Shown: in pieces, positions 2,929 to 33,021 of the stretch | How positions within the stretch are numbered: the first letter of the stretch is position 1 | How the letters are laid out: each line of letters starts with the position of its first letter | Source: a virus | Taxonomy: Duplodnaviria; Heunggongvirae; Uroviricota; Caudoviricetes | Reading direction: 5' to 3' (one strand) | DNA length: 33,021 nt | IMG/VR virus record: IMGVR_UViG_2651869781_000018 | Program-made: the position numbers and the translations under genes | Notes under the pieces: generated by a model | Database searches by the model: none | Seen by the model: only the letters and a program-made list of their open reading frames with translations | Told to the model about the DNA's origin: nothing

Positions 2929-2939
2929 AGGGCGTTGCG

Positions 2940-8196: not shown

Positions 8197-8200
8197 ACCA

Positions 8201-13421: not shown

Positions 13422-13444
13422 TAAGACAAAGGAGCAAATTTTTT

Positions 13445-14497: not shown

Positions 14498-14542
14498 TCA
14501 ACTCACGGCGGGAATCATGCCCGCCTGTAACGGAGAGAAAAA

Positions 14543-15343: not shown

Positions 15344-15435
15344 CGACTGACCCCGTCAGCGGGCGGCGTGCGCGGTGTTCCGGTTTGACTCCGTGACCGT
15401 TTACACCGCGCACCCACCGCCCGATTTTTTCAGGA

Positions 15436-16139: not shown

Positions 16140-16141
16140 CA

Positions 16142-17258: not shown

Positions 17259-17409
17259 TACTCCCACATGGGGAAATCTCGGTATATGGGGCGACCGCCT
17301 TCTGGATGCACTGGAAACCTGTAACGCGGATAAACGGGCCATTGAATTACTGGAACAGCGCAGGCTGCAACGACTGAACAACGAGGATAACAACCATGCT
17401 GAAAACTGA
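17089..17409 (+). CDS. Outer-membrane lipoprotein spanin (Rz1/LysC-like), begins inside the Rz frame and extends beyond it
   Basis: Lipobox LLTGC after a signal peptide (start may be the internal ATG at 17119); proline-rich; overlapped architecture as in P2 lysB/lysC. Confidence 0.5.
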   Translation: MNSYATILQKMNAPTLCLTLVLLTGCAGTQNAPRPAPSVRLIPQTLTIPVTPPPFPDTPTWGNLGIWGDRLLDALETCNADKRAIELLEQRRLQRLNNEDNNHAEN

Positions 17410-17863
17410 TTCCCTGCGTGAAGCCATGACCCGTTCATGCCGATGGTGTCAGGCCAACCCGGAAAAATTCACCATTTTCGTGGAGAGCGGCAACATTGAA
17501 ACGACCGGAGAAACCCCATCGTTTGTTTACCGCTATCAGATGGTGATGTTTGTCATGGATTACGCCGGGGAGCTGGATGACCTCACGCTGCCGCTGCTGG
17601 CGTGGTTATCCCAAAATCAGCCACAGTTGTTGCTCAACCCTGAGCGTAATCAGGACATCAAATTCTCCGCCGTTATCAATGACGATGACAGCGCCGATCT
17701 CCTGTTTACGCTCCCCTTGCGGGAACGCGTTCGCATCACGCGCAGCAGTCAGGGCACACCGCAGGCAGAACACCTGCCGGAGCCAAAACCCCGCCTGCCA
17801 TCTTCCGAAGGCGACTGGTCGCATGTATTCCAGGATGTGACGTGGGGTGAAAGCGATGGATAA
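17396..17863 (+). CDS. R: Tail completion protein R-like
   Basis: 155 aa; synteny after the lysis cassette. Confidence 0.75.
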   Translation: MLKTDSLREAMTRSCRWCQANPEKFTIFVESGNIETTGETPSFVYRYQMVMFVMDYAGELDDLTLPLLAWLSQNQPQLLLNPERNQDIKFSAVINDDDSADLLFTLPLRERVRITRSSQGTPQAEHLPEPKPRLPSSEGDWSHVFQDVTWGESDG

Positions 17864-18491
17864 GGCATTCACCCGCGTGGATGAAACCTTTGAGGCCATC
17901 CGCGACAGCCTGAATCAGCAGGCCATCAATAACATCGCCAGAAAGCTGGCACAGGATTTACGTCGCGCCCAGCAGGCACGTATCCGGTCACAGAAAGCGC
18001 CGGACGGGACCGCATGGACACCACGCAGACGCCGCGTAACCCGGATACAGGAACGCATTCGCTTTATCTGGAATAACGAAGCACGCACGCTGAAAAACTG
18101 GCATCACGACACGGGGAAATACGGGCGAACCATCACCGGGTGGGATGAGGATAAAAACAACATCCGCACGTTTTACCGGGATGACATCGACCGCTTTCTG
18201 GAAATACGCACCCGGCGCATCAACCAGGACAGCACAAAGCGCGTCCCCATGTTCGTAAAACTGCGCACCGCCCGCTACCTGAAAGCCCGTGCGGATACTT
18301 CCGGTGTGACGGTGGGTTACAGCGGCGTGGCTGCACGTATTGCACGCGTTCATCAGTTCGGTGAGCGCGATCAGGTTGCGCCGGGCATTTTCACCGATTA
18401 CCCGGTACGTGAGCTGTTGGGCATCAGTCAGGCAGATGAACGCCTGATTTATAACACGGTGCTGGGCCGGATTGCGGAGGCTGTACGGTGA
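17847..18491 (+). CDS. S: Tail completion / virion morphogenesis protein S-like
   Basis: 214 aa; synteny between R and V. Confidence 0.7.
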   Translation: MKAMDKAFTRVDETFEAIRDSLNQQAINNIARKLAQDLRRAQQARIRSQKAPDGTAWTPRRRRVTRIQERIRFIWNNEARTLKNWHHDTGKYGRTITGWDEDKNNIRTFYRDDIDRFLEIRTRRINQDSTKRVPMFVKLRTARYLKARADTSGVTVGYSGVAARIARVHQFGERDQVAPGIFTDYPVRELLGISQADERLIYNTVLGRIAEAVR

Positions 18492-19069
18492 GCGCAGAAC
18501 TCATGCGACTGCTGAGCAATATCATCCGCACCGGGATCATCTCTGAAGTTGATGAGAAGTCCTGGCGCGTGCGCGTTCGCAGCGGCGAACTGGAGACAGG
18601 CTGGTTGCGCTGGAACACCACGCGCGCGGGAGCCTTCAATGTGTGGCTGCCGCCATCACCAGGCGAACAGGTGGTAATTGCCTGCATTGGCGGCAACCCG
18701 GAAACCGCCATGATAATTGGCAGCCTGTGGAGTGATGCCAATCCGGCCCCCGGCAAAAGCCTGAAAGAAATCGTGATCAGCGCGCCGGACGGCGCGGTGT
18801 TCCGCTACGACGCGGACGCAGGCGCACTGAGCGCCAGCGGCATGAAAACGGCCACTTTACAGGCATCCGTCAGCGTGACACTGGACACGCCCGTCGTGGA
18901 ATGCACAAACCTTCTGAGAACGGCGACGCTTGACGTCACAAAAGGGGGAAAGATGAGCGGCAATATCACGCACAGCGGCGGCGATTTCACCTCAAACGGC
19001 ATTACCGTGCATACGCATAAACACGGTGGCGTGAAAGGTGGCAGCGATTCGACAGGAGGCCCGCAGTGA
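18488..19069 (+). CDS. V: Baseplate assembly protein V (spike)
   Basis: 193 aa; synteny and glycine-rich C-terminus typical of gpV. Confidence 0.8.
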   Translation: MSAELMRLLSNIIRTGIISEVDEKSWRVRVRSGELETGWLRWNTTRAGAFNVWLPPSPGEQVVIACIGGNPETAMIIGSLWSDANPAPGKSLKEIVISAPDGAVFRYDADAGALSASGMKTATLQASVSVTLDTPVVECTNLLRTATLDVTKGGKMSGNITHSGGDFTSNGITVHTHKHGGVKGGSDSTGGPQ

Positions 19070-19416
19070 CAACCCGCTACACAGGAATGAACCCGGACGG
19101 AACGGGAAACCTGAACGATATGGAGCACCTGAAACAGTCAGTCAGGGACATCCTGACCACCCCACTGGCAAGCCGGGTTATGCGACGGGAATATGGCAGC
19201 CTTGTGCCTGATTTGATTGACGAACCCATGAATAACACCACGCGTCTGCAATGCATGAGTGCTGCCGTGATTGCGCTGACACGATGGGAACCCCGCATTG
19301 CCCTGGATGCCATCGACGTTGTCTGGAAAGCGGGAGGCCGCGCCGGGGTGACGCTGTCGGGCACTGTCATGCAGACCATGCAGAATGTTGAATTAACCAT
19401 CACGCTGAGGGAGTAA
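19066..19416 (+). CDS. W: Baseplate protein W (gp25-like)
   Basis: 116 aa; overlapping start; synteny. Confidence 0.8.
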   Translation: MTTRYTGMNPDGTGNLNDMEHLKQSVRDILTTPLASRVMRREYGSLVPDLIDEPMNNTTRLQCMSAAVIALTRWEPRIALDAIDVVWKAGGRAGVTLSGTVMQTMQNVELTITLRE

Positions 19417-19419
19417 ATC

Positions 19420-20316
19420 ATGCCCGCCGTTGACCTTTCACAGTTACCGGACCCCGCCATCATCGCGGAGCCTGACTTTGAGGCAATTCTGGCTGACACA
19501 AAGGCCATGATGATTGCGGCTTATCCCGCCGAACAGCGTGAAGCCGTTTCCGCCGCGCTGGAGCTGGAATCGGAACCCCTTAACGTTATCGCTCAAACCA
19601 TGTCGTTTCGTGAAATGCTGTTACGCCAGCGGGTTAACGAGGGGGCACGCGCCTGCATGTTAAGCCACAGCGCCGGGACAGACCTGGACAACCTCGCGGG
19701 CAATATGAACACAAAACGCCTGGTTATCACTCCGGCAACGGATACCACCGACGCGGTGATGGAGAGCGACACCTCGCTGAGACTGCGGGCGCAGCGGGCG
19801 TACGACGGCCTGAGTGTTGCTGGCCCGTCAGGTGCATACGAGTATTTTGCACGCAGCGCCAGCGGTCTGGTGCGTGATGCGCGGGCTATCAGTCCGTCTC
19901 CGGCAAATGTGACGGTTTCCATTCTGTCCACTGAAGGCGACGGCACAGCAACGGAGGCGTTGCTTAATACCGTTCGCGCCGTTCTGAATGCAGAGGACAC
20001 CAGCCCGGTGGCCGACCGCCTGACCGTACAGAGCGCCAGAATCGTGACATGGCGGCTGAATGCAAAACTGTACTTTTACCCCGGCCCGGAATCCGAACCT
20101 ATTCTGGCTGCGGCGGAATCGTCGTTCAGGAAGTGGCTGGCTGAGCAGGGGCTTATCGGTCAGGACGTGGCGTTGTCCGCCATTGCTGCCGCACTGCATG
20201 TGCACGGTGTGCAACGCGTGGAGATAATCGAACCCACACAGAATATGGCCATCAGCGACATACAGGCGGCGCGCTGTGAGTCGTTCACCATCAGCGAAGG
20301 TGGGCGCAATGAGTAA
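19420..20316 (+). CDS. J: Baseplate protein J
   Basis: 298 aa; synteny. Confidence 0.8.
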   Translation: MPAVDLSQLPDPAIIAEPDFEAILADTKAMMIAAYPAEQREAVSAALELESEPLNVIAQTMSFREMLLRQRVNEGARACMLSHSAGTDLDNLAGNMNTKRLVITPATDTTDAVMESDTSLRLRAQRAYDGLSVAGPSGAYEYFARSASGLVRDARAISPSPANVTVSILSTEGDGTATEALLNTVRAVLNAEDTSPVADRLTVQSARIVTWRLNAKLYFYPGPESEPILAAAESSFRKWLAEQGLIGQDVALSAIAAALHVHGVQRVEIIEPTQNMAISDIQAARCESFTISEGGRNE

Positions 20317-20839
20317 TTCACTGTTACCACCATCAGCCAGCAGTTTCATGCGTTGTGCCGAAGCTGTCGGAACGCGCATTACAGACATCCCGGTAGACCT
20401 CAACACGCTGTGGTCGCCGGATACCTGCCCGGTGCATCTGCTGCCTTACCTCGCCTGGGCGTTTTCCGTTGACCGCTGGGATCGCAACTGGCCGGAAGAG
20501 ACAAAACGACAGGTGATTCGTGATGCATGGCTGATACACCGACACAAAGGGACCATCAGCGCACTGCGCAGGGCCATTGAGCCGCTGGGATACCTCATTC
20601 GCGTGTCTGAGTGGTGGGAGTTCGGCGGAGAACCGGGAACATTTACCGTTGAAGTCGGCACACTGGACAGTGGCGTGACGGAGGAAATGTATCTGGAAAT
20701 GGAGCGGTTGATTGCTGATGCCCGTCCGGTCAGCCGCCACATGACAGGGCTGAATATCATTCAGGAAATTCCGGGGGATATTTTCGCAGCGGCGGCAACT
20801 TATGACGGTGAAGTTATTACCATTTATCCGGACGATTAA
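20309..20839 (+). CDS. I: Baseplate / tail fibre attachment protein I
   Basis: Start MSNSLL at 20309 overlapping the J stop by 8 nt, RBS GAAGG; synteny. Confidence 0.75.
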   Translation: MSNSLLPPSASSFMRCAEAVGTRITDIPVDLNTLWSPDTCPVHLLPYLAWAFSVDRWDRNWPEETKRQVIRDAWLIHRHKGTISALRRAIEPLGYLIRVSEWWEFGGEPGTFTVEVGTLDSGVTEEMYLEMERLIADARPVSRHMTGLNIIQEIPGDIFAAAATYDGEVITIYPDD

Positions 20840-20841
20840 GC

Positions 20842-23001
20842 ATGAGTACCACAACACGAAAATTTAAAACCGTTATCACCGATACAGGTGCCAAAAAATT
20901 AGCTCAGGCAGCCGCGCCAGATGGTAAGCCTGTTCGCCTGACTCATATGGCCGTGGGCGACGGTGGCGGCACGTTGCCCACACCAGACAGTAAGCAGACC
21001 CGTCTGGTGCATGAGGTGTGGCGACATACTGTTAATCGCGTCATCCTGGACGCAACACATCAGAACCGCATTATTGCGGAGCTGCTTATTCCTCCTGAAA
21101 CGGGCGGATTCTGGATCCGGGAAATTGGTGTGTTTGATGAGAACGGCGATTTGATCGCGGTGGGCAATACTGCCGAAAGTTACAAGCCAATCGTTGCCGA
21201 AGGGTCCGGACGCGCACAAACATTTCGCACCATTCTGACCGTATCCAGCACTGCCACCGTGGCGCTTACCGTGAATAACACCATGGTGATGGCCACAGTG
21301 GATTACGTGGATGACAAACTGAAAGAGCATGAACAGTCACGACGTCACCCGGACGCCTCGCTGACCGCAAAAGGCTTTGTTCAACTCAGTAGCGCCACTA
21401 ACAGCGTGTCTGAAACGCAGGCTGCAACGCCGAAAGCGGTTAAGGCCGCGTATGATCTTGCTAACGGTAAATATACTGCGCAGGATGCCAGCACGACGCG
21501 AAAAGGCCTTGTCCAGCTCAGTAGTGCCACCAACAGCACGTCTGAAACACTGGCCGCGACATCGAAAGCGGTTAAGGCGGTAATGGATGAAACGAACAAG
21601 AAAGCGCCCTTAAACAGTCCTGCGTTGACCGGAACACCAACAACACCAACTGCGCCAAAAGGGACTAATAATACTCAGATCGCAAGCACGGCTTATGTTA
21701 TGGCTGCGATCGCTGCCCTCGTGGATTCGTCGCCTGATGCACTGAATACGCTGAACGAGTTGGCTGCGGCGTTGGGCAACGACCCGAATTTTGCGACCAC
21801 CATGACTAACGCGCTTGCGGGTAAGCAACCGAAAGATGCCACCCTGACGGCGCTGGCCGGGCTTGCTACTGCGGCAGACAAGTTTCCGTATTTTACGGGG
21901 AATGATGTCGCCAGCCTGGCAACCCTGACAAAAGTCGGGCGGGATATTCTTGCGAAATCGACCGTTGCTGCCGTTATCGAATACCTCGGTTTGCAGGAAA
22001 CGGTAAATAAGGCTTCTGGCGCATTACAGAAAAACCAGAACGGCGCAGATATTCCCGATAAAAAACTATTCCTGCGTAATATCGGCACAACAAATTCAAC
22101 AACCATGTCTTTTAGTGGTGGTGCTGGATGGTTCAAACTGGCAACTGTAACAATGCCACAAGCCAGTTCCGTGGTTTACATAAGCCTGATTGGTGGCGCA
22201 GGGTTTAACGTTGGCTCCCCGCATCAAGCAGGCGTCTCTGAGCTGGTTCTGCGTGCCGGAAATGGAAATCCAAAAGGTATTACTGGTGCATTATGGCGAC
22301 GGACCTCGGTTGGATTTACTAATTTTGCATGGGTGAATACATCCGGTGATACCTATGATGTTTATGTTGAAATAGGTAATTACGCCACAGGTGTTAATAT
22401 TCAGTGGGATTATACCAGTAACGCCAGCGTAACGATTCATACATCACCAACTTATACAGCGAATAAACCAACAGGCCTGACAGATGGAACTGTATATGTA
22501 ATTTACAGTTCGCACATTAAACCGACTGCTGCTGAGGTTGGGGCGTTGTCATTATCTGGCGGTCAATTGAATGGTGCACTGGGCATCGGAACATCCAGTG
22601 CTCTTGGTGGTAACTCGATTGTTTTGGGTGATAATGACACGGGATTTAAACAAAATGGCGACGGGTATCTGGATGTTTATGCTAATAACGTCCATGTTAT
22701 GCGCTTTGTCTCCGGCAGTATTCAAAGTAATAAAACCATAAATATTACAGGGCGTGTTAATCCCTCAGATTACGGTAACTTTGATTCCCGTTATGTGAAA
22801 GATGTTCGACTTGGTTCACAGCAATATTATGGCGTGAACAACTGGCAAACATGGAATTTCCAGTGCCCGTCAGGTCATGTATTGACTGGTATTAATGTTC
22901 AGGATACAGGGTCCAATTCTGCCGATAATATAGCGGGCGTTTATTACAGACCCGTTCAAAAGTATATAAATGGCACCTGGTATAATGTAGCGAGCGTTTA
23001 A
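20842..23001 (+). CDS. H: Tail fibre protein H (constant N-terminal part fused to the currently expressed variable C-terminal part)
   Basis: 719 aa; internal tandem repeat ([24 protein letters not shown], about 21364..21590); C-terminus ...[14 protein letters not shown] nearly identical to the C-terminus of the inverted H' cassette. Confidence 0.9.
21974..21999. promoter_or_regulatory. Left crossover site of the invertible segment (gix/hix-like 26-bp site TTATCGAATACCTCGGTTTGCAGGAA) inside H
   Basis: Inverted copy of the site upstream of the invertase gene; core AAACC-GA-GGTTT-type dyad as in Gin/Hin/Cin/Pin systems; coordinates approximate (+/-2). Confidence 0.7.
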
Positions 23002-23002
23002 T

Positions 23003-23530
23003 ATGATGCACTTAAAGAACATAAAAGCGGGTAACGCTAAAACACTGGAACAGTATGAGTTAACAAAGAAACACGGAGTTATCTGGCTTTACTCTGAGGA
23101 CGGAAAAAACTGGTATGAGGAAGTGAAAAACTTTCAGCCAGACACCATAAAGATTGTTTACGATGAAAATAATATTATTGTCGCCATCACCAAAGATGCA
23201 TCCACGCTTAACCCTGAAGGTTTTAGCGTCGTTGAGGTTCCCGATATAACAACCAATCGTCGGGCCGATGATTCCGGTAAGTGGATGTTTAAGGACGGAG
23301 CTGTGGTTAAACGGATTTATACGGCTGACGAACAGCAACAACAGGCCGAATCACAAAAGGCCGCGGTACTTTCCGAAGCAGAAAGCGTTATTCAGCCACT
23401 GGAGCGCGCTGTCAGGCTGAATATGGCGACGGATGAGGAACGCGCACGACTGGAATCATGGGAACGCCACAGTGTTCTGGTCAGCCGTGTGGATACAGCA
23501 AATCCTGAATGGCCACAAAAGCCTGAATAA
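23003..23530 (+). CDS. G: Tail fibre assembly chaperone G
   Basis: 175 aa; strongly similar to the divergent paralogue on the minus strand (HLKNI.AGN.KT.EQY.LTK...[18 protein letters not shown]). Confidence 0.85.
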
Positions 23531-23534
23531 AAAT

Positions 23535-23556
23535 TAAGGCCCGATAGTGGGCCTTG
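23535..23556. terminator. Hairpin (AAGGCCC-GATAGT-GGGCCTT) between convergent G and G', likely bidirectional terminator
   Basis: Perfect 7-bp GC-rich inverted repeat between two converging stop codons. Confidence 0.5.
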
Positions 23557-23558
23557 TC

Positions 23559-24092
23559 TCATTCTGGTTGTTCGGGAAACGTTACTGGCAGGCTGGAGGT
23601 GTCTGTAGATTCGACTTTCTGCGCATAGAGCATCCACTCGGTTAATTTTTGTTTATTCTCGTCGGAAATGATACCCAGCCGTAGCTGTGAGTCCCATAGC
23701 TGGGTTTTATCCCTGACAAGTTGCAACAGGCTTTGCTTTTCATTCTCTGCCTGCTGCCTCTGTTCCTCCTCGGTATAAGTTCGCTTTATCACCGCGCCAT
23801 CTTTGAACATCCAGTTACCCGAAATATCAGCCCGTCTATTGGCTGTTATATCAGGCAACTCAACAACGCTTAAACCTTCTGGATTAATTGCCGATACATC
23901 CTTATCAATAGCAACAATAACTCCCTCTGCTGTGTAAGCTAGCTTTATTGTATCTTCCTGAAAGTTTTTCACTTCCTCATACCAGTTTTTTCCGTCTTCA
24001 GACCATAACCAGATAACATTAAAATTCTTTGTTAGCTGATATTGTTCAACGGTTTTTGGATTACCTGCGACAATGTTTTTTAAATGCTGCAT
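23559..24092 (-). CDS. Alternative tail fibre assembly chaperone G' (silent in this orientation)
   Basis: 177 aa paralogue of G on the opposite strand inside the invertible segment. Confidence 0.85.
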
Positions 24093-24095
24093 AAG

Positions 24096-25040
24096 TTACA
24101 CCTGCGCCACGTTATACCATGTGCCATTGATGTATTTTTGTATTGGTCTGAATACAGCCGGATCATCGCCATCAACAGAGCCAATAATGCCAAGCCCTGT
24201 AATTACATGACCTGATTTCTCATACATCACGCCTTTTTGCATGGTCTGAACAACACGAGTGCCCAGGCGAATATCTCGTACATAGCGAGAATCCGATTCA
24301 GCTTTGGTATATGCACCAACATCTCCCGCAGAGGGTTTGCGGGTTGTGGTATAAAACTCTGACCAGTCAGCCTCAAATCCATAACCATCTCGCGCTGAAC
24401 GATAATAAATACCGCCGTTCTTATAATTCACGCGTAATTGTACAGCCGGGCAGCTACCCGCGTTCATATTGAAATGAAGAATTAATGTTGATGCGCCTTT
24501 TAGGTCTGCATCATAAACACCGCTATTCCAGTTCCAGCCAACAGCTTTATCATTTGCAACCCTGTTTCCTGTCTGCCCTAAAGCAAATGCAGGTTGCAGG
24601 TTTTTCGTGTTGTAGTCTCGTCGCCAGCCAGGAGCGTAAGCATCACCATGATTAATATAAGTGAATTGAGCGTTAGTGATTCCGCCACCACTGGAAGTGC
24701 TTGGTGTTGTTACACGGATGGTCATGGCACCTTTATTACCCATAACCTCAATAACGCAACCTGCAAGATGAATAGTTCCACAGCCAGTATCGGTTATAAT
24801 TTTATTATTGCCATACGACCATGAACATTTGCACATCCAGTATGGGTGATTGAATGCCCCTTGAGAATCCAGCCATTCAATCAATTGTGCCGTTGTCCAG
24901 TTCCCTGCACCTGTACTAATAGAACTGTGAAAAGCGCGACATGCACCAATATTTTTTGTGAAGGTATCTTTTCCTGGAATATCTGCGCCGTTCTGGTTTT
25001 TCTGCAATGCGCCTGAAGCCTGATTTATCGTTTCCTGCAA
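24096..25040 (-). CDS. Alternative tail fibre variable C-terminal cassette H' (promoterless; would be fused to the constant part of H after inversion)
   Basis: Begins [21 protein letters not shown], the same junction sequence found inside H ([22 protein letters not shown]); ends ...[14 protein letters not shown]; the annotated start codon is TTG and is probably not a true initiation site. Confidence 0.75.
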   Translation of the reverse strand: MQETINQASGALQKNQNGADIPGKDTFTKNIGACRAFHSSISTGAGNWTTAQLIEWLDSQGAFNHPYWMCKCSWSYGNNKIITDTGCGTIHLAGCVIEVMGNKGAMTIRVTTPSTSSGGGITNAQFTYINHGDAYAPGWRRDYNTKNLQPAFALGQTGNRVANDKAVGWNWNSGVYDADLKGASTLILHFNMNAGSCPAVQLRVNYKNGGIYYRSARDGYGFEADWSEFYTTTRKPSAGDVGAYTKAESDSRYVRDIRLGTRVVQTMQKGVMYEKSGHVITGLGIIGSVDGDDPAVFRPIQKYINGTWYNVAQV

Positions 25041-25058
25041 ACCGAGGTTTTAGATAAT
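25033..25058. promoter_or_regulatory. Right crossover site of the invertible segment (TTCCTGCAAACCGAGGTTTTAGATAA)
   Basis: Reverse complement of the left site over the half TTCCTGCAAACCGAGG; lies just upstream of the invertase gene; coordinates approximate (+/-2). Confidence 0.7.
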
Positions 25059-25093: not shown

Positions 25094-25699
25094 TTGGACG
25101 GGAGATTCAGCGTGCTGATTGGCTATGTAAGGGTATCAACAAATGACCAGAATACAGACCTGCAACGAAACGCTCTTGTTTGTGCAGGATGTGAACAAAT
25201 ATTTGAAGATAAATTAAGCGGGACAAAGACAGACCGACCGGGATTAAAACGCGCTTTAAAGCGCCTTCAAAAAGGTGACACGCTGGTTGTCTGGAAACTG
25301 GATCGCCTCGGGCGAAGCATGAAACATCTGATTTCTCTCGTCGGGGAACTACGGGAGCGAGGGATTAATTTTCGCAGTCTGACCGACAGCATAGATACAT
25401 CTTCTCCAATGGGGCGTTTTTTCTTCCACGTGATGGGTGCCCTGGCTGAAATGGAACGTGAATTAATTGTTGAACGTACACTGGCCGGACTGGCAGCAGC
25501 GCGCGCACGGGGGCGCACAGGCGGACGTCGCCCGAAGCTGACAAAAGAACAGCATGAGCAAATAGCAAGGCTGATTAAAAACGGTCACGACAGAAAACAA
25601 CTGGCAATAATTTACGGCATTGGTACATCGACGATTTATCGTTACCACCCCGCAGGAGAATCAAGCGGAACAATAGAGAAGAGTCAGAAAACAAAATAA
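25094..25699 (+). CDS. Serine DNA invertase, Gin/Pin/Cin/Hin (Din) family
   Basis: N-terminal catalytic motif LIGYVRVSTNDQNTDLQRNAL, then GDTLVVWKLDRLGRS and a C-terminal HTH; very close to Mu Gin as remembered. Annotated start is TTG at 25094; a GTG at about 25112 (M-LIGYV) with GGGAGA RBS is an alternative. Confidence 0.9.
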   Translation: MDGRFSVLIGYVRVSTNDQNTDLQRNALVCAGCEQIFEDKLSGTKTDRPGLKRALKRLQKGDTLVVWKLDRLGRSMKHLISLVGELRERGINFRSLTDSIDTSSPMGRFFFHVMGALAEMERELIVERTLAGLAAARARGRTGGRRPKLTKEQHEQIARLIKNGHDRKQLAIIYGIGTSTIYRYHPAGESSGTIEKSQKTK

Positions 25700-25728
25700 C
25701 CGCTAATCTGACCATTAGCGGTTTTTGC
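25700..25728. terminator. Hairpin plus T-run (ACCGCTAAT-CTGACC-ATTAGCGGT TTTT) between convergent invertase and U genes, likely bidirectional terminator
   Basis: 9-bp perfect stem followed by TTTTT on the plus strand and preceded by AAAA (T-run on the minus strand). Confidence 0.6.
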
Positions 25729-25734
25729 GTTAAA

Positions 25735-26229
25735 TCAGAACAGCCCTTTAACTGAACTGGCCGCGCTGTTAAGAGATGATGTCACCTTATCTTTGAAGCC
25801 GGACAGCATATCGCTGAACGATGAGGATTGCAGGCGCTCCCGCAAATCCTCATCACAGCGTTCAAGGGTCAGTGAAAATTCTATCTTTTTCGCCTTACCG
25901 TAGCGATCAAACTCGGAACGGGTCGTATTCGTTCCGGTCAGGACATACATGCCGTAAATCTGCCCAACGCCATCAATCAAAGGCCAGGGTCGTCCTGTAT
26001 ACGCCTGCATGGTCAGCAGCGACAGCGACACTTCGCCACCTGTAATTTCAGGATAAAGCACACCAGAAAGAACGATGCGATCATCACCTGCACCGATATA
26101 CTGCCAGCTTGCTGAACGGTTAACGCGTTCATTTTTCACATGCCGCCAGCTTTTGTTTTGCTGTAACTGCTGATGCGGCAGCGTGCGCAGCTCAAAAACA
26201 AACATGCCGTAGATCATCATCATGGCCAT
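25735..26229 (-). CDS. U: Tail protein U-like
   Basis: 164 aa, immediately downstream of the tape measure gene on the minus strand; size and position match P2 gpU. Confidence 0.75.
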   Translation of the reverse strand: MAMMMIYGMFVFELRTLPHQQLQQNKSWRHVKNERVNRSASWQYIGAGDDRIVLSGVLYPEITGGEVSLSLLTMQAYTGRPWPLIDGVGQIYGMYVLTGTNTTRSEFDRYGKAKKIEFSLTLERCDEDLRERLQSSSFSDMLSGFKDKVTSSLNSAASSVKGLF

Positions 26230-26235
26230 GACTCC

Positions 26236-29079
26236 TCAATCTTTATCGTAAAAACTGCCACGCCCGGCACGGGCGCGCCGTTCCATTTCTGCCCTGACCA
26301 TTTCACCGACCAGTTTCGCCAGTTCGCGGGGATTCTGCGTAACAACGTTATGCAGATGAACATGAATTTCACCGCCAAATCCTGAGGCAACAGGTTCCCG
26401 GTTACGCGAAGGTGTTGGGGCTGATGCCACTGGCGATCGTATGGCCTCCGCCACCGGGCGGGAGCTGGCCGCAACAACAGGGACCAGCGCCGGAGGCAGC
26501 GGGGCCGGAACCACAGGCGTGATATTAATTGCGGGGGCAGGCTTACTGACCTGCGCAATCTTCCGCTCCTGCCACTCCCCACGAACGGCAAGTGCGCGGG
26601 GCAGGTTCTTAAAGACAATATCGCCGGGGCCAATGCGTTTTTTCGTCTCATCAACCAGCTTACCTGTGTTATCAGCAATTTTGCTGAGTCTGCGTAGCGT
26701 ACCGGTATTGCTGTCTGTGAGCGGTTTGTTGTCTTTGGGTTTATCGCCTCCGGTGCCATTGCCATTTTCCACAGGCTTCGGCGGATTGATTTTCGCCAGG
26801 TCCCCCTGAAGCAAGGCAACCTTGTCCTGAAGAATGGCCGCACGCTGTGCGTCTTCGATTTTCTTGCGCGCCCTTTCCGCTTCATCCGGAAGCACACCAA
26901 GCTTTTCAAGTATCCACGCCAGCGTATCCAGCAACATTTTTGCAGGCGTCAGAACAAGCTGTAACGCACCCCCAAGAACGTTACCGAATACCTCGCCAGC
27001 ACTGGTGCATTTATCCAGCGTTTCCTTGCTGAACTCCATCGGTAACAGCAGCGATTTAAACCAGTTAAACACCTGGCTGATCCCGCTTCCGATTGCGTCA
27101 AAAACAGGGCCAAACCGTTCAAAGGTTTCGCGCAACGGGGCCAGTCGCTCCATAATCCCACTGAACACCCCGGCATAAAACGCCTTGATGGGTTCCCAGT
27201 ATTTCCAGATGAGAACCGCCGCAGCGACAAACGCTGCAGCAATCAACCCGACCGGACTGAACAGCGCCCCGATAGCGCCTCCCAGCAACGAGATGGAACC
27301 TGTTACCATTCCCCATAGTGCTGGCAGCACCCTGACGACATTCATTGATCCGGTCAGGAGAGAAAAACCAAGACGTAACGTGGCCAGTTTCCCGTGAAGC
27401 ACACCAATAACCAGCGACAACGAGCCAACCGTTGCAGTCATTGCCAGCAGCGCACCGCCTGCTATCAGCAGCTGGCGCGTCAGTACCGGATGAGCCTGCG
27501 CCAGCGCCGTCACCTTTGAAACTACCCGCGTGAGCCACTGCGTGACAGAACGCAGCGGGCCGTCAATCAGATCTGCAATGCGGATGCGCAACCCTTCCCA
27601 TGCACTGCTGAGTGATTTCAGATCGCCGTCAAGGTTGTTGGCCATAACCTTTGCCGTGCGTTCAGCCTCACCGCGCGCGCCTTCAAGTTCTTTTCTCAGT
27701 TTGGGTAAGGAGCCGTCACCTGCCGCATCAACGAGGGCCATAAATGATGTGAAAGCCTCTTCTCCGGCAATGTCCTTAAAGAACGATACCCGGTCAACTT
27801 CCCCGTATTTGCGGGTGGCTTTATAAAGGTCGGCCAGCACATCCTCCATCGGGCGCATTTTGCCGTTCGCATCAGAGACGGACACACCCAGCTCTTTCAG
27901 CGCTTCTGCTGCCGCCTTTGGCGGTGATGCCAGACGAGCCAGGCTGGCACGCATTGCCGTCCCGGCATCACTCCCTCTGATGCCCATATTCGCCAGCACG
28001 CCCGCCATCGCTGCGGCCTGCTCCAGCGATATTCCCAGCTTACCCGCCACCGGACCTGCATATTTCATGGTTTCGCCCAGTGCGCGAAGGTCAGTGTTGG
28101 TACGGGTAAACGCTGCGGTGAGTGTGTCACCAACCCGGTCCATCTGGTCAGCAGAAAGGCCGAACTGCGTCAGGATATTTGAGCCAATATCCGCCGTCTC
28201 GCCGAGATCCATGCCGCCAGCCGTTGCCATGCTCAGCACGCCCGGAAGCGCAGCCTGAATGGCCTGCGGAGTGAAGCCAGCCATTGCAAGAAATGCCTGC
28301 CCACTGGCGGCATCGCCTGCGGTGAACTGCGTTTCAGAGCCAAGTTTTAACGCCTGCTCACGCAGCGCCTTAAACTGCGGGCTGTTCTGGTCGATTCGCG
28401 TCAGTGCCTGAACGCGGGACATCTCTTTCCCGAACCCGATCGCAGGCTGCAAAAAACGCCCGGCAGCATAGCCGCTAGCCGCTGCCGCACCAATTGCCAG
28501 CGCACCACCTGTTTTCAGTTTTCCCGCGGTTTCCTGCGCGCGCGAATACCGCTCACGCGCACGTGTTACACGCGCAAGCGCCTGCCGTTCGCGTTCAAGC
28601 TGGTTGTTGTACTGTTCGGTGCGTCTGATGGCCTGCTGGATGGTGTTATCGCTGCCTGTCAGGGAAATGCCGTGGCGTTTCAGCTCTCCGCCAAGCTCCC
28701 GCATTTTCTGAATTTCCCGTGTACGCGATTCATTCAGGCGTTCAAGCCGGGTGCTTAACTGCTGCATCAGCTTTTGTTGTTTTTCGCTGAGCACTGTACC
28801 CGTGCGTTGTAACTGATTAAGGGCGTTAAGCTGGCGTCGTGCTTTCACGATGCCCGCATCCGCTTTACTGACAGCGTCACGGGCGCGCTCAAATGAACGC
28901 GCCTGACGCTCGAGATTTTTGATCGCCCCCTGCGTTCGCTGGATGGAGTCACCAAACTGCCCCATCAGGCGGCGGGCGTTTTCGGCAGGTCGGGTCAGCC
29001 TGTCAACGGCGCTGAAAGCGACCCGGATATCAAGAGTCTTCATTGTCTGCATTCCCGCTGCGAAGTGCCGCCCGCTCAC
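26236..29079 (-). CDS. T: Tail tape measure protein T
   Basis: 947 aa, alpha-helical/coiled-coil N-terminal half, Ala/Gly-rich hydrophobic middle segment; downstream of the E/E' frameshift pair. Confidence 0.85.
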   Translation of the reverse strand: MSGRHFAAGMQTMKTLDIRVAFSAVDRLTRPAENARRLMGQFGDSIQRTQGAIKNLERQARSFERARDAVSKADAGIVKARRQLNALNQLQRTGTVLSEKQQKLMQQLSTRLERLNESRTREIQKMRELGGELKRHGISLTGSDNTIQQAIRRTEQYNNQLERERQALARVTRARERYSRAQETAGKLKTGGALAIGAAAASGYAAGRFLQPAIGFGKEMSRVQALTRIDQNSPQFKALREQALKLGSETQFTAGDAASGQAFLAMAGFTPQAIQAALPGVLSMATAGGMDLGETADIGSNILTQFGLSADQMDRVGDTLTAAFTRTNTDLRALGETMKYAGPVAGKLGISLEQAAAMAGVLANMGIRGSDAGTAMRASLARLASPPKAAAEALKELGVSVSDANGKMRPMEDVLADLYKATRKYGEVDRVSFFKDIAGEEAFTSFMALVDAAGDGSLPKLRKELEGARGEAERTAKVMANNLDGDLKSLSSAWEGLRIRIADLIDGPLRSVTQWLTRVVSKVTALAQAHPVLTRQLLIAGGALLAMTATVGSLSLVIGVLHGKLATLRLGFSLLTGSMNVVRVLPALWGMVTGSISLLGGAIGALFSPVGLIAAAFVAAAVLIWKYWEPIKAFYAGVFSGIMERLAPLRETFERFGPVFDAIGSGISQVFNWFKSLLLPMEFSKETLDKCTSAGEVFGNVLGGALQLVLTPAKMLLDTLAWILEKLGVLPDEAERARKKIEDAQRAAILQDKVALLQGDLAKINPPKPVENGNGTGGDKPKDNKPLTDSNTGTLRRLSKIADNTGKLVDETKKRIGPGDIVFKNLPRALAVRGEWQERKIAQVSKPAPAINITPVVPAPLPPALVPVVAASSRPVAEAIRSPVASAPTPSRNREPVASGFGGEIHVHLHNVVTQNPRELAKLVGEMVRAEMERRARAGRGSFYDKD

Positions 29080-29559
29080 GCCAGCTAACCACTTCGCCGG
29101 GCGTCATCATGAAGATTTCGGCGGGCGACCAGTTAAAAATAACGGCAATATCTGCCACAAAGTCTTCTATGTGCTCAAAGCACACAACCGTGATCAGGCT
29201 TCCGTCGCCTGTTCGTTCTTCCCGCCAGAGTCCGCACCGCTCAAAAAATTTACGGCAACCACACATAACTGAATAAAGTCACGGGATGCCATTTTTTTGA
29301 TCGTCACTTCATCCAGTCGCGGTGATGTCACGCGTGACAGCAGCGTAAACATGGATTCCGCTTTCAGATTCAGCACATCAGACAGCGACAAATCTCGCAG
29401 AGATCCAGCCTGCTCAATAGCCCCGGTGATCTCCACATACGTGATTTTTTCGCCGCCTCGCTCAATGGGTTGGGTAAGTTTTACGCCACGCTCACTGGTT
29501 TCTTTCACAGTGTCAGCAACTACCGTGTTTTCGGTATCGATGTTTTTCGTCTCTTTCAT
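29030..29559 (-). CDS. E: Tail assembly chaperone pair: E (29194..29559) and the -1 frameshift product E+E' (slip near 29241..29247, extension to 29030)
   Basis: Minus-strand slippery heptamer T TTT TTG (plus-strand CAAAAAA at 29241..29247) lies in the E frame (..VAVNFL..); slipping -1 joins exactly to the overlapping ORF frame (..KFFERCGLW..), as in the P2 E/E' pair. Confidence 0.75.
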
Positions 29560-29613
29560 CAGGAAACTCCTTTCAGTCAGAGGCGACGCACTGCGCCGCC
29601 TGCATATTACTTA

Positions 29614-30126
29614 TCAGCCAAGCCCAAGCGCGGAACGGATGCGATCGGGCACAATGTCCTTGCCGTCCTTCCGGTAAATGAAGTTCAGCAGGTCAATCTC
29701 CCACAACGGACGATCGTTAACACTCAGCTTGTAGTAGGTGTTTTTAATGGCGTAAGTGTGTGATGTGGCTTCGCCCTGTTTGGCTTCCCCCATATCAATT
29801 TCCGTCACACGTCCGCGCATTTCGACTTCATACAGGTCGCTTTCTGCATCGGTGTAGTATTCACCCGCAAAACGCAGCAGCGTGCCGTCAATCGTGCCGC
29901 CATACTTAAGGAACAGCGCACGAACTGCGCCCCCCATGACAAAGCTCGCATCAAGCGCGGAGTCGTCCAGACCGAGATCAATACTTACCGCCCCCATCAT
30001 GCCACCACCCCGATAGCTGTCGGTTTTGCGCGTCAGTTTGGGCAGAGTGACGGACGTCACCTTACCCACTTCGTTTTCACCATCCACAAACAGCGTAAAA
30101 AAGCGAAGATGTTTTGGCACAGCCAT
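29614..30126 (-). CDS. FII: Tail tube protein FII
   Basis: 170 aa; between sheath and E on the same strand. Confidence 0.85.
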   Translation of the reverse strand: MAVPKHLRFFTLFVDGENEVGKVTSVTLPKLTRKTDSYRGGGMMGAVSIDLGLDDSALDASFVMGGAVRALFLKYGGTIDGTLLRFAGEYYTDAESDLYEVEMRGRVTEIDMGEAKQGEATSHTYAIKNTYYKLSVNDRPLWEIDLLNFIYRKDGKDIVPDRIRSALGLG

Positions 30127-31310
30127 CAGGCACCTCCCAGCACCGCAAATGCGGGTTCAAAGTATTCATCAGTAAACGTCTGGTAAAGCTCCATGTCTTC
30201 CAGTGGCGGAACGGGCGTATATTTGTAGCGAATACGCACACGCCCCTGACGTAAATCCGTGGTGCTGTTATCCACCACGTCATACCAGCACTCCGCGCCA
30301 ATCAGTTTCCCGGCAGTCACCAGTGAATCCAGTTTTGCCCTGATGGCACTGATAACATCCTTCACGTTCGCAGGCGTCAGTGGACTGTCGATGGTTTCAA
30401 ACTGCGCTTCCGCAATTGAATCAGCCAGCACCTGTGCGGTTCGGGTATACACCTCAAAGATGTAGGCGTTCGTTTCCGGTGTGCGGTTGCCCCAGAAGCG
30501 GAACCCGTTGCGACGAATAATGGTCGTGATTTCTTTGTTGTTGAGGCTGTTGGCATCACTGTCTTCGGCCTGCAACGACCAGAACACATGCCTAGACATC
30601 CCCAGCACATTTTTAACCGGAACGTTGGACAGCGATTTGTGCCAGCCCTGTTCATGGTCAATGTACGCACGAAGGCCGCACGCATAGGCAGGCGCGGGGA
30701 ACGTTTCGTTTTCGCCACTTTTCGGGTTGTAGGCGATGAAGTCCGGCCATAAGAGCATCACTTCACGTTCGTTGAATTTCTGGCGGTAGGTAATCGCTTC
30801 AGCCATCGTGTTACAGCCGTGACATGAGGCATACACAAATGCGCGCAGTTTACCCGCAATCACGCACAGGGATTTTGTCACCGCCTCCGTGTCCAGCTCC
30901 GGCGCGGCCAGAATACGCGGACGGTATCCGATGCTTTCATCCAGCTCTGCAACAAGCAGCGCATACATCCCCGTATAGCTGCCGTCATCCTCAGAACCAC
31001 CGATAACCAGTTGATCCTGCGTCTTTTCGTCTTCTTCTTTGTGTTCAGCCACGCGAACGACGATCACCTTTGTGCTCACCTGGTCTGCGATGGCCTTAAG
31101 CGCACGATAAAGCGTCCCCGTTGTTCCGCATTTTCCCAGCACGTCATTGACGCGGGTCAGCAGTGTGGGCTTGTTCAGCGGGAACAGCTTCGCGTCCGCA
31201 TCATCCGCCGTTGCCACGATACCGATAACGCTGGAATCAACATCGTTAATCGCTGTTACCAGGTCGGTATTTTCCGTAACACGGGCACCATGAAAACGAG
31301 TTTCACTCAT
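30126..31310 (-). CDS. FI: Contractile tail sheath protein FI
   Basis: 394 aa; motifs FPLNKP, LRAF.Y, WPDF, GWHK.LSNV, RR.GFRFWGNRT, YTRTAQV, Y.YTPVPPLE match P2 FI as remembered. Confidence 0.9.
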   Translation of the reverse strand: MSETRFHGARVTENTDLVTAINDVDSSVIGIVATADDADAKLFPLNKPTLLTRVNDVLGKCGTTGTLYRALKAIADQVSTKVIVVRVAEHKEEDEKTQDQLVIGGSEDDGSYTGMYALLVAELDESIGYRPRILAAPELDTEAVTKSLCVIAGKLRAFVYASCHGCNTMAEAITYRQKFNEREVMLLWPDFIAYNPKSGENETFPAPAYACGLRAYIDHEQGWHKSLSNVPVKNVLGMSRHVFWSLQAEDSDANSLNNKEITTIIRRNGFRFWGNRTPETNAYIFEVYTRTAQVLADSIAEAQFETIDSPLTPANVKDVISAIRAKLDSLVTAGKLIGAECWYDVVDNSTTDLRQGRVRIRYKYTPVPPLEDMELYQTFTDEYFEPAFAVLGGA

Positions 31311-31467
31311 AGCTTCAGCCCCTTGTATCCGTTAAATGATTCGGCAACAATCATCACCCACCACGCGCGTAATCTCACCCCTGCGCCGTTCTCCCGCCAC
31401 GGCGACAACAAAAAGCAGTAACCCCCTCCGCACGCACATGCGACCATGCCACACAGGGAGGGAGCAG
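31311..31467. promoter_or_regulatory. Divergent intergenic region between the FI (minus) and D (plus) start codons; must carry promoter(s) for both
   Basis: Inferred from gene arrangement; no promoter hexamers or Ogr-type TGT-N12-ACA site could be assigned confidently by eye. Confidence 0.3.
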
Positions 31468-32577
31468 ATGACCGACACCACCATGCAATTGCTCAGTCAG
31501 GGCACAGACCCCGTGAAAATGCCGGATTTTGATATTCTCGCCGAGGGTAAAACGCTGTCCGGCGTGGCAGAACGCCTGATGAGCCTGTCACTGACCGACA
31601 ACCGGGGATTTGAGGCGGACCAGCTCACCATCACGCTGGATGATGCCGATGGCCAGTTGCAGCTACCGCCACGGGGCGCGCGTCTGACGGTTCTCATTGG
31701 CTGGAAAGGGGAACCGCTGACAGAAAAAGGCACTTACATTGTTGATGAAATCGCTCACGAAGGACCGCCGGACAGGCTGACTGTTTCAGCCAGAAGCGCA
31801 GATTTTCGGGATGAATTTAACGTTAAACGTGAGGTGTCCTGGCATGATGTGACCGTTGAGCGTGTGGTATCCGCCATCGCTCATCGGTATGGTCTGAAAC
31901 CGCAAATCAGCGAAATGCTGATGGATATCGAAATCGACCACGCCGACCAGACCGAAGAAAGCGACATGTCCTTCCTTACGCGCATGGCGGAAATGCTGGG
32001 CGCAATCACCACGGTAAAAAGCGGTAATCTGTTATTCATCATGCCCGGTGGTGGCGTGAACGCACAGGGCCAGCCGTTGCCCTCGTTCGCCATCACACGC
32101 AACAGCGGCGATCGCCATCAGTTCCGCATTGCTGACCGCGAAGCGTATACGGGGGTACGCGCTTACTGGCTTGATCTTAATTACGGGAAAAAGAAAAAAG
32201 TCAGCGTGAAACGCCGCAAACCGTCAAAACCAAAAAAGGAGAAAAGCAGCAGCCGGGAAGGCGACTATATGGAAGGTGCGGAAGGCAACGTGTTTGTGTT
32301 ACGCAAAACTTATCAGAACGAGCAGGCAGCAAGACGCGCAGCGGCGGCAAAGTGGCAGCAGCTACAACGCGGAGCCGCATCATTCTCCATCACGCTGGCG
32401 CGTGGACGTGCAGAACTCTACCCCGAAATGCATGGCACGGTAACAGGATTTAAAAACGAGATTGATAATCAGGACTGGATTATTGCAAAAGCCGAGCACA
32501 CCATTGATAACAGCGGCTTTACCACGCAGCTTGAGCTTGAGGCAAAAATCCCGGAATGGATAGCAGAAACAGAGTGA
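31468..32577 (+). CDS. D: Late control / tail protein D (gpD)
   Basis: Start MTDTTMQ with GGGAGGGAG RBS; LTDNRGFEADQL, SARSADFR, ESD.SFLTRMAE, GDRH.F.IADR.AYTGV, EGDYMEG..NVF, SGFTTQLELE match P2 D as remembered. Confidence 0.85.
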   Translation: MTDTTMQLLSQGTDPVKMPDFDILAEGKTLSGVAERLMSLSLTDNRGFEADQLTITLDDADGQLQLPPRGARLTVLIGWKGEPLTEKGTYIVDEIAHEGPPDRLTVSARSADFRDEFNVKREVSWHDVTVERVVSAIAHRYGLKPQISEMLMDIEIDHADQTEESDMSFLTRMAEMLGAITTVKSGNLLFIMPGGGVNAQGQPLPSFAITRNSGDRHQFRIADREAYTGVRAYWLDLNYGKKKKVSVKRRKPSKPKKEKSSSREGDYMEGAEGNVFVLRKTYQNEQAARRAAAAKWQQLQRGAASFSITLARGRAELYPEMHGTVTGFKNEIDNQDWIIAKAEHTIDNSGFTTQLELEAKIPEWIAETE

Positions 32578-32645
32578 GCAACTTAGACATATTAGCTCAA
32601 ACTTAAACTGGCAAGTTTACAGTATAGAATTAAACATAAACGACG

Positions 32646-32675
32646 GTCCGCTCCGTGTCAGAAGCGGACTTTGTC
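32646..32675. terminator. Hairpin (GTCCGCT-N10-AGCGGAC) with flanking T-rich runs between convergent D and the truncated AT-rich gene
   Basis: 7-bp inverted repeat followed by TTTGT on the plus strand. Confidence 0.4.
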
Positions 32676-32697
32676 ATCCCTATGTAAGGTTGATTGC

Positions 32698-33021
32698 TTA
32701 ATACGCATTTAATTTAAATTTGTATTTGCCTTCTATGTAATGGATAAATTCAATTATGCTTTTTTCTATCGCATCTAATATATGAATATATCCATCCCGA
32801 TTTAAGGTCCTATCCAACTCAAAGTGATGAACTATCCCATGTCTATATTGTATGATTTCAGAAATTCGATTCTCAAGAAAATCAACTGATTTTCCAATTC
32901 TTTTTTTCTTATAAAGAATCGCTCTCACATCTATATCCAGCCACTCTTTATATGCTTTGTTTAGGTGGGTTAAGTTTTGAAAAGTGTAATTTCTTGCAAT
33001 AACACTTTCTATTGAAATATT
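32698..33021 (-). CDS. 3' portion of a foreign-looking, AT-rich gene truncated by the window edge; C-terminal region carries an R-x4-H (HEPN-like) motif
   Basis: Minus-strand frame stays open from the stop at 32698 to the window end (manual translation ...NISIESVIARNYTFQNLTHLNKAYKEWLDIDVRAILYKKKRIGKSVDFLENRISEIIQYRHGIVHHFELDR...), so the annotated GTG start at 32928 is not the real start; composition visibly much more AT-rich than the prophage. Confidence 0.45.
   Translation of the reverse strand, partial: NISIESVIARNYTFQNLTHLNKAYKEWLDIDVRAILYKKKRIGKSVDFLENRISEIIQYRHGIVHHFELDRTLNRDGYIHILDAIEKSIIEFIHYIEGKYKFKLNAY

Follow-up and report, generated by a model that had tools for sequence, protein, structure and literature searches.

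Gene Order of the Tail Block and Its Neighbors

The stretch of DNA analyzed here, referred to as the window, comprises 33,021 nucleotides of a Caudoviricetes genome (IMG/VR record IMGVR_UViG_2651869781_000018). Searches against PHROGs and Pfam assigned a tail fiber region, a DNA invertase gene and a block of P2-like tail genes to its right-hand part, where the following features are found:

20842–23001, plus strand: tail fiber gene H (PHROGs and Pfam)
23003–23530, plus strand: G (PHROGs and Pfam)
23559–25040, minus strand: alternative G' and H' fragments (PHROGs and Pfam)
25094–25699, plus strand: ORF of a Gin/Cin/Pin-type serine DNA invertase (phrog_125 "DNA invertase," E = 6.6e-97; Resolvase and HTH_7 domains)
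25698–25723, both strands: two-way intrinsic terminator hairpin (10-bp stem, T-runs on both strands)
25735–26229, minus strand: tail protein gpU (PF06995 Phage_P2_GpU, E = 3.5e-38; phrog_76)
26236–29079, minus strand: ORF of the tape measure protein gpT (phrog_28, PF10145)
29030–29559, minus strand: E+E', a −1 frameshift product (slippery TTTTTTG at 29248–29242, stop of the E' frame at 29032–29030)
29194–29559, minus strand: gpE (phrog_103)
29614–30126, minus strand: tail tube FII (PF04985, E = 1.5e-46)
30126–31310, minus strand: tail sheath FI (phrog_23, E = 2.5e-127; sheath domains)
31311–31467: FI–D spacer, 157 bp
31468–32577, plus strand: baseplate hub/late control gpD (PF05954; start codon conserved)
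32698–33021, minus strand: 3' part of a HEPN-like cargo gene lying between D and the ogr position, cut by the window end

The gene order, read directly from these assignments, bears out the original prediction that FI to U (25735–31310) lie on the minus strand, opposite to D. U converges on the invertase gene over a common hairpin, as had also been proposed, and the folding energies of this hairpin (−13.7 and −16.4 kcal/mol, z-scores −3.5 and −4.2) agree with a terminator that serves the invertase gene on one strand (plus) and the FI–U operon on the other (minus); a scan of the whole window against Rfam returned no family match. The predicted divergence of FI and D over 157 bp holds given the D start codon at 31468. 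This ATG is conserved and lies downstream of the ribosome-binding site GGGAGGGAG, and the encoded protein is 99% identical to a "phage late control D family protein." A longer in-frame D ORF starting from ATG 31336 is not conserved, with in-frame stops 6–54 nt before the conserved ATG in many relatives; the upstream ATG is annotated as the D start in the record of phage 500465-2. The invertase probably starts at GTG 25112 (MLIGYVRVSTNDQ), giving a gene of 25112–25699, and following the P88 annotation the probable start of gpT is ATG 29043. At the E' position, a separate GpE-family ORF is annotated in P88 and in RefSeq.

The block corresponds to the F operon of phage P2 (PF-FI-FII-E-E'-T-U-D, then ogr) in its gene content and in the internal order FI, FII, E, E+E', T, U, and shares with it the T6G slippery site for E+E' and an Ogr-type dyad upstream of FI, with a protein identity between P2 and the window of approximately 47–48%. 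The departure from canonical P2 synteny is nevertheless real: in the P2 record the operon ends with D, which overlaps the stop codon of U, whereas in the window FI–U is inverted and D stands alone on the opposite strand, beside FI and behind a predicted promoter.

In nearly all relatives, a gene for an Ogr/Delta zinc-finger protein comes after D; in P88 and in E. coli E89 it does so directly (after about 45 nt), although the ORF is unannotated in the P88 RefSeq record. In phage 500465-2, D is succeeded by a 340-aa cargo gene and then by an Ogr_Delta gene (PF04606, E = 5e-14), and the cargo gene of the window is 100% identical to that of this phage. A regular-expression search of the window for an Ogr-type C4 zinc finger found none in a real gene, and its small early-region ORFs gave no Ogr_Delta match. 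The comparison with relatives suggests that the ogr gene of the window lies just past the window end, beyond the cargo gene.

Distribution of the Divergent FI/D Arrangement

To the phages P88 (Xuanwuvirus), Xuanwuvirus P884B11, Citrobacter phage phiSM, and Escherichia phage 500465-2 (Gemsvirus), the window is collinear with an identical arrangement, H G (invertible fiber segment, invertase) U− T− E− FII− FI− D+, and its DNA is 93–95% identical to that of P88, phiSM, and 500465-2; the variable parts of the tail fibers differ between these relatives. The P88-like records share the 157-bp FI–D spacer and the geometry of its dyad and −10 elements, described below. Salmonella phage SEN4 (Senquatrovirus) has the same layout, without an invertase, at 62.5% identity of the D protein. 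The layout of the clade as a whole can be written as J I H ... U− T− E− FII− FI− D+ with an FI/D spacer of approximately 157–240 bp, and the window conforms to it.

Among the phage records checked, those with a D protein at least 62% identical to that of the window are divergent, and those at 52% or below, namely P2, Fels-2, and Yersinia, Burkholderia, and Ralstonia phages, are co-directional. In bacterial genomes the order U− T− E− FII− FI− D+ was found in all of the approximately 40 informative loci, from about 40 species of Enterobacterales, with a D identity of at least 69%; the canonical order was seen in the one relative with a D identity of 48%, from Orbus. Of 5,426 complete E. coli genomes, 1,355, about a quarter, carry the native FI/D junction intact, at 95–100% identity. 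The opposite junction, U to D, represented by a synthetic query, is intact in none of the 1,415 E. coli genomes that match this query. P88 and phiSM are active phages according to the literature, and SEN4 originates from work on the phages that Salmonella strains produce, indicating the arrangement to be functional.

That the orientation might be an artifact of assembly at the junctions near 25.72 and 31.4 kb had been raised as a caution. No evidence for such an artifact was found, and the same junctions recur in independently sequenced isolated phages, in the 1,355 complete E. coli genomes, and in approximately 40 other species, which leaves this explanation with a negligible probability. Nor is the orientation an anomaly: the original prediction had allowed that it might instead be fixed and universal in this phage lineage, which is what was observed, and its suggestion of a lineage-specific rearrangement agrees with the fixed order seen in P88-like, Gemsvirus, and Senquatrovirus phages and across the approximately 40 Enterobacterales species. 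In a large group of P2-like phages that had already been sequenced, the opposite orientation is the standard and fixed arrangement; no description of the inverted block or of promoters at FI/D was found in the searchable literature.

The notion of a "canonical P2 synteny" consequently fails for P2-like prophages that are very common in enterobacteria, being present in about a quarter of the complete E. coli genomes, and neither prophage callers nor human readers should take the layout for an anomaly or an assembly error. Outside annotation and comparative phage genomics, the weight of this finding is small.

The probable history is a single ancestral inversion that took in both the FI-FII-E/E'-T-U operon and its late promoter PF, with the resulting orientation kept ever since. 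The block could also have been gained in reverse by module exchange with another contractile-tail phage rather than inverted in place, given that phage genomes are mosaic and that tail-fiber and cargo regions have clearly been exchanged among the relatives. This origin is highly unlikely, as the divergence of FI, a gene of the block, parallels that of D, which lies beyond it, each being approximately 47–48% identical to its P2 counterpart and 68–82% identical across the clade, and as the block carries a normal PF-type dyad at the expected place upstream of FI.

The Invertible Fiber Segment and the Tail Block

The serine invertase gene abuts the block, and a short palindrome, AAAC-GA-GTTT, is present near the FI start. 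Both had been pointed out before, the palindrome as only suggestive, and would speak for an inversion by this Gin-like invertase through secondary sites, occurring now or recently, so that the orientation of the block could vary within a culture. The fiber segment next to the invertase gene served as a positive control. Two gix-like sites, and only two, are found in the window:

21974–21999, minus strand: left gix-like 26-bp crossover site, inside H (2 mismatches to the right site; 0 chance matches expected)
25032–25057, plus strand: right gix-like crossover site TTCCTGCAAACCGAGGTTTTAGATAA, a short distance upstream of the invertase gene

The left site falls within a 93-nt inverted repeat (I2), and both sites bound the fiber segment and not the tail block. 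This 3-kb segment shares 83–89% DNA identity with the invertible-segment regions of Mu, D108, and P1, and like the Gin/Cin/Pin/Hin systems (the Mu G segment, the P1 C segment) it has inverted 26-bp sites, an invertase, and both orientations represented, with 123 E. coli genomes carrying the flipped form intact and 19 the native form of the window.

None of these properties extends to the FI–U block. The 12-bp gix core, allowing up to one mismatch, is absent from both block ends, and no inverted repeat links 25.7 kb with 31.3–31.5 kb. The flipped junction of the block is missing from all 1,415 genomes, whereas the true invertible segment occurs in both orientations. The invertase gene is also absent from most relatives that share this layout; it was detected in only eight of the surveyed loci and not in SEN4, the orientation of the block being the same in all of them. 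The string AAAC-GA-GTTT does occur as reported; as a recombination core it does not stand up, since it sits in FI codons that are variable among relatives and does not match the gix-type site present elsewhere in the window. An invertase-driven or secondary-site inversion of the block is on these grounds extremely improbable. The invertase would flip only the 3-kb fiber segment between its two gix-like sites, in a process unrelated to the tail block.

Among the inverted repeats of the window, a single pair spans the block ends (I8, 26 nt, 77%); its arms lie within coding sequence, that of the invertase and that of D, and the pair looks like a chance match.

The FI–D Spacer as a Candidate Two-Way Late Promoter

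The nearest upstream gene on the plus strand, that of the invertase, ends in a terminator and is followed by 5.6 kb of antisense genes, which precludes read-through into D. It appears that D is served by a promoter of its own, as the original prediction had considered necessary after an inversion, and conservation supports this: upstream of D lies a conserved extended −10 element whose distance from an Ogr-type dyad does not vary. The elements proposed for the FI–D spacer, and their counterpart in the divergent P/O (terminase/scaffold) spacer, are as follows:

12494–12513, both strands: second dyad TTCT-N12-ACAA, followed by CAAAAG, in the P/O spacer
31350–31355, minus strand: predicted −10 of the leftward FI promoter, GATGAT (predicted start near 31343)
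31389–31408, both strands: putative Ogr-type activator dyad TTCT-N12-ACAA (center 31398.5)
31439–31447, plus strand: predicted extended −10 of the rightward D promoter, TG-c-GACCAT (predicted start near 31454)

An exact search for TGT-N12-ACA gave no match in any late intergenic region; the dyad was recovered with a relaxed T[G/C]T pattern combined with comparative alignment. TTCT-N12-ACAA occurs in just two copies in the 33 kb, at 12494 and at 31389, and the latter has one mismatch to TGT-N12-ACA (TCT for TGT), a consensus from which the activator sites of P2 themselves deviate. In the stack of aligned spacers the ACAA half-site is 100% conserved and the other half is T[G/C]T, with a perfect TTGT-N12-ACAA in many relatives.

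The spacing of these elements is constant. When 40 distinct spacers are stacked without gaps, the conserved −10 elements occupy −49 to −44 on one side of the dyad center and +41 to +49 on the other, with zero indels, and this in a 124-nt spacer core with a median pairwise identity of only 53%. On the FI side, A2, A5, and T6 of the hexamer, at −45, −48, and −49, are 100% conserved in 21 nonredundant relatives; on the D side, the TG is conserved in 90%, A2 of the hexamer in 100%, and T6 in 90%. The conservation and spacing were observed directly; promoter function of the motifs, binding of Ogr to the dyad, and the use of one site for both directions are inferred from them. A simple sigma-70 consensus scan of 31311–31467 found no promoter, a result that is expected for activator-dependent promoters without a −35 element and that provides no positive support either.

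The closest parallel is the divergent PP/PO pair of P2. The record of that phage lists a single "activator binding site; pO, pP promoters," and the two transcription starts lie 55.5 nt from its center, one on each side. In P2 as in the window, one dyad is flanked by −10 hexamers 44–49 nt away on each side; the FI-side offset equals that of the PP −10 and the D-side offset that of the PO −10, and the 111 bp between the P2 starts (3016 and 3127) match the 111 bp predicted for the window (~31343 and ~31454). The two pairs differ in that the one in the window is predicted to serve FI and D, not P and O, and in that its rightward −10 is TG-extended. In the paper on phage Smp131, one palindromic site is assigned to the promoters PP' and PO'.

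Taking these observations together, the window likely derives from a P88-like, P2-family (Peduoviridae) E. coli prophage whose FI–U operon was inverted along with PF a single time, ancestrally, and became fixed, and whose 157-bp spacer acts as a two-way late promoter. The spacer would be built like PP/PO, with one roughly palindromic Ogr-type site (31398.5) about 55 nt upstream of both predicted starts; leftward transcription from ~31343 (−10 GATGAT) would then proceed through FI to U, and rightward transcription from ~31454 (extended −10 TGcGACCAT) would allow D to be expressed. Counting against this model, the leader predicted for D is short, at about 14 nt, with the ribosome-binding site beginning 2–3 nt past the predicted start, the dyad of the window departs by one mismatch from TGT-N12-ACA, and no ogr gene is present inside the window. 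What this model adds is modest but testable, namely that a palindromic activator site could have been reused after the inversion to drive the stranded D gene.

The same fixed inversion is compatible with a different control of D, in which D, and ogr downstream of it, would be transcribed from an activator-independent extended −10 promoter, leaving the dyad to FI only. A conserved TG extension can free a promoter from a −35 element or an activator, and Ogr-independent transcription would explain how ogr is first expressed where it lies about 45 nt after D. Against this, all 40 distinct sequences have the D-side −10 at exactly the same distance from the dyad, without indels, this distance equals that from the P2 PO −10 to the shared PP/PO site, and the O-side promoter of the window is TG-extended as well, at an equal offset. 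We consider activator-independent transcription of D unlikely, and favor the two-way promoter.

The dyad of the P/O spacer is flanked by TAATCT on the minus strand (12455–12460) and by TG-c-CATCAT (12545–12553), at the offsets seen around the FI/D dyad. It is somewhat more probable than not that phages of the P88-like clade express their entire late gene set from two two-way regions with one dyad each, that at 12494 driving P/Q to the left and O-to-G to the right, and that at 31389 driving FI-to-U to the left and D to the right, the inversion having turned the one-way PF into a second PP/PO-like pair. A PV-type third dyad was sought upstream of V and none was found; S and V overlap. If the two-region reading is true, an ogr gene directly following D would lie on an Ogr-activated transcript, forming a positive feedback loop. 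We found no description of two-region late control for the P88-like clade in the searchable literature.

The FI/D spacer was also considered as a duplicate of the P/O spacer; their identity is 35%, compared with a random mean of 25%, and is confined to the dyad, and this candidate was rejected.

Several corrections to existing annotations follow, namely the placement of the D start at the conserved ATG (31468), the addition of the ogr ORF of P88, and the removal of small ORFs called in the spacer. The small "hypothetical" ORFs called within the promoter spacer look spurious.

Gene layout of the prophage

On the basis of its ORF map and of PHROGs and Pfam assignments, the window is a complete P2-family prophage with the following layout:

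Left part of the window: integrase and repressor
After integrase and repressor: long replication gene and ParM-like partition genes
Leftward: portal and terminase genes
12585-23530, rightward: scaffold to tail-fibre genes, a single unbroken block
23559-25040, minus strand: alternative fibre and chaperone copies
25112-25699, plus strand: serine invertase
25698-25723: two-way hairpin terminator between the invertase gene and U
25735-31310, minus strand: U, T, E, FII, FI
31468-32577, plus strand: D

The coordinates given for the tail block and D in the original prediction were all correct on re-checking, as were the 157-bp length of the FI–D spacer and the shared hairpin, a two-way terminator. 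The ParM-like and plasmid-stability (ParR-like) partition genes occupy 7237-8512, in the early region, although the P2-like prophage is an integrated one. The interval 29030-29559 (minus strand) holds a P2-type programmed -1 frameshift, with the slippery sequence TTTTTTG in gene E at 29248-29242; the E' frame, which stops at 29032-29030, overlaps ATG 29043, the probable start of T. ATG 12585 (ribosome-binding site GAGGGG), and not 12552, is the probable start of the scaffold gene O, and the overlap of S and V (region 17847-19069) leaves no space for a P2-like PV promoter.

Distribution of the inverted tail block

In a large clade of P2-like phages that has already been sequenced, the inverted tail block is the normal arrangement, an outcome that the original prediction had itself named as its refutation. 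To survey its breadth, diverse D homologues were aligned and 47 loci were retrieved from one-genome-per-species bacterial contigs, with block orientation assigned per locus by tblastn with the tail proteins of the window. Every locus with a D of at least 69% identity and flanking genes shows the order J+ I+ H+ ... U- T- E- FII- FI- D+, including loci from Salmonella, Edwardsiella, Serratia, Erwinia, Pantoea, Kosakonia, Klebsiella, Brenneria, Pectobacterium, Symbiopectobacterium, Yokenella, Raoultella, and others. An invertase was detected in only eight of the loci surveyed by tblastn, two of these being the P88 and phiSM reference loci. The sole distant match, from Orbus (D 48% identity), has the canonical co-directional order. 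Among phage records, divergent FI and D are found in Klebsiella phages (D ~70%) and in Salmonella phage SEN4 (62.5%, without invertase), and all records checked with D at or below 52% are co-directional (P2, Fels-2, and Yersinia, Burkholderia, and Ralstonia phages). The parallel divergence of FI and D favours a single ancestral inversion in place over the exchange of a whole module. Both P88 and phiSM are reported to be active phages, and SEN4 stems from a study on phage production by Salmonella strains, indicating that the layout is functional. A degraded relative in Trabulsiella odontotermitis (2213-3957 and 20532-21008 of its locus) has H and I on the minus strand directly adjoining the invertase, J 17 kb away beyond D, and a truncated D; this represents either a further rearrangement or a second prophage.

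Misassembly or a live inversion of the block had also been raised, and both are refuted by the genome data. A 10.5-kb query over the region gave a one-piece collinear match to P88, Xuanwuvirus P884B11, and Citrobacter phage phiSM, and at least 80% coverage in 214 complete Escherichia coli genomes; the annotated gene strands of P88, phiSM, and phage 500465-2 agree with the window. Of 5426 complete E. coli genomes, 1355 carry an intact native FI/D junction (1050-nt query, 95-100% identity), and none carries a flipped junction constructed from the U 3' end and the D 5' end, as a flip would yield: in all 1415 matching genomes the two halves mapped apart. The 3-kb invertible fibre segment served as a positive control, with its flipped junction intact in 123 genomes and the window orientation in 19, showing that the method picks up invertase-driven inversions when present.

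The invertase and its fibre segment

Exactly two gix-like 26-bp sites are present in the window, one at 21974-21999 (-) and the other at 25032-25057 (+), with none expected by chance. Both fall within a 93-nt inverted repeat and border the fibre segment, a region with 83-89% identity to Mu, D108, and P1. An inversion of the FI–U block by the invertase, possibly through secondary sites, finds no such substrate: the regions around 25.7 kb and 31.3-31.5 kb contain neither the 26-bp site (up to three mismatches) nor its 12-bp core (up to one mismatch), and no inverted repeat joining the two block ends was found. It is virtually certain that the FI–U gene order is fixed and that the invertase plays no part in it. 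The AAAC-GA-GTTT motif suggested earlier was rejected as a recombination site, as it lies within FI codons that vary among relatives. The interval 21974-25057 is a Mu G-segment-like invertible tail-fibre cassette, found in both orientations among complete E. coli genomes; in E. coli TUM14668 the flipped junction is present at 100% identity.

The FI–D spacer and late control

Plus-strand read-through cannot reach D, because the invertase gene is closed by a terminator and followed by 5.6 kb of antisense genes. The proposal that D needs its own promoter agrees with a predicted extended -10 at a fixed distance from an Ogr-type activator dyad upstream of D. To define conserved elements, 40 distinct FI–D spacers were aligned and then stacked gaplessly on an invariant ACAAC, with conservation scored on 21 spacers of less than 90% mutual identity. 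The 124-nt core has a median identity of only 53% in this set, within which the following stand out (offsets from the dyad centre, 31398.5):

31389-31408: dyad T[G/C]T-N12-ACAA (TTCT-N12-ACAA in the window), ACAA half 100% conserved
Offset -49 to -44, leftward: predicted -10 hexamer, GATGAT in the window; A2, A5, and T6 100% conserved
Offset +41 to +49, rightward: predicted extended -10, TGcGACCAT in the window; TG 90%, A2 100%, T6 90%

Many relatives have a perfect TTGT-N12-ACAA dyad. The interval between the two -10 elements is free of indels in every stacked sequence. With a single exception, the D start codon lies 67-71 nt from the dyad centre, and many relatives have an in-frame stop just upstream of it. 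A simple sigma-70 scan found no -35/-10 promoter in the spacer, consistent with activator-dependent late promoters. A heptamer at -62 to -56 (31337-31343), which coincides with the predicted start of FI transcription or lies close to it, is also strongly conserved (each position at least 90% in the non-redundant set); it reads TGA-TTC in the window and TGAGTTC in most relatives (GAACTCA on the FI strand).

The same geometry is known from P2, whose record lists a single "activator binding site; pO, pP promoters" at 3057-3087. The mapped PP and PO starts, 3016 (-) and 3127 (+), each lie 55.5 nt from the centre of the dyad, and P2 -10 hexamers at offsets 44-49 on both sides match those of the FI–D spacer; the starts are 111 bp apart, as are those predicted in the window (~31343 and ~31454). 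In phage Smp131, one palindromic site was likewise assigned to the divergent PP' and PO' promoters (PMC3931495). Judged from motif conservation and spacing, the FI–D spacer is thus likely to be a two-way promoter. The ancestral inversion would have taken PF along with the FI–U block, and with it a palindromic Ogr site that would now stand back-to-back with D; this one site could then drive FI to U leftward and D rightward, like PP/PO in P2. Apart from the copy at 31389, TTST-N12-ACAA has a single occurrence in the 33 kb, at 12494 within the P/O spacer (12431-12584), with the same flanking -10 geometry; this suggests that the four late transcription units are served by two control regions. No description of the inverted block or the FI/D promoter pair was found in the searchable literature, and the promoter pair counts as a minor, testable addition, not as a discovery.

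No Ogr-type zinc finger was found within the window. In nearly every relative, P88 included, an ORF starting MFRCPLCG follows D by ~45-60 nt; the RefSeq annotation of E. coli E89 names it "ogr/Delta-like zinc finger family protein". The 444 nt that follow D (32578-33021) are 100% identical to phage 500465-2 (11586-13060 of its locus), where an inserted 340-aa minus-strand HEPN-like gene separates D from an Ogr_Delta gene (PF04606, E = 5e-14), so that ogr very probably lies just past the window end. The cargo gene in the window is low in GC, on the minus strand, HEPN-like, and cut by the window end; together with a hairpin (32646-32669), this convergent gene parts ogr from any D transcript in this variant.

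Public records are likely to be at fault in three annotations within these regions. The Ogr-like zinc-finger ORF of P88 is unannotated (~12665-12925 of our extracted locus, NC_026014 ~34476-34736). The "hypothetical" gp50 of P88 (11344-11475 of the same locus) and the 413-aa D call of 500465-2 (10224-11465 of its locus) both overlap the conserved putative promoter spacer, and neither is conserved as an ORF in relatives.
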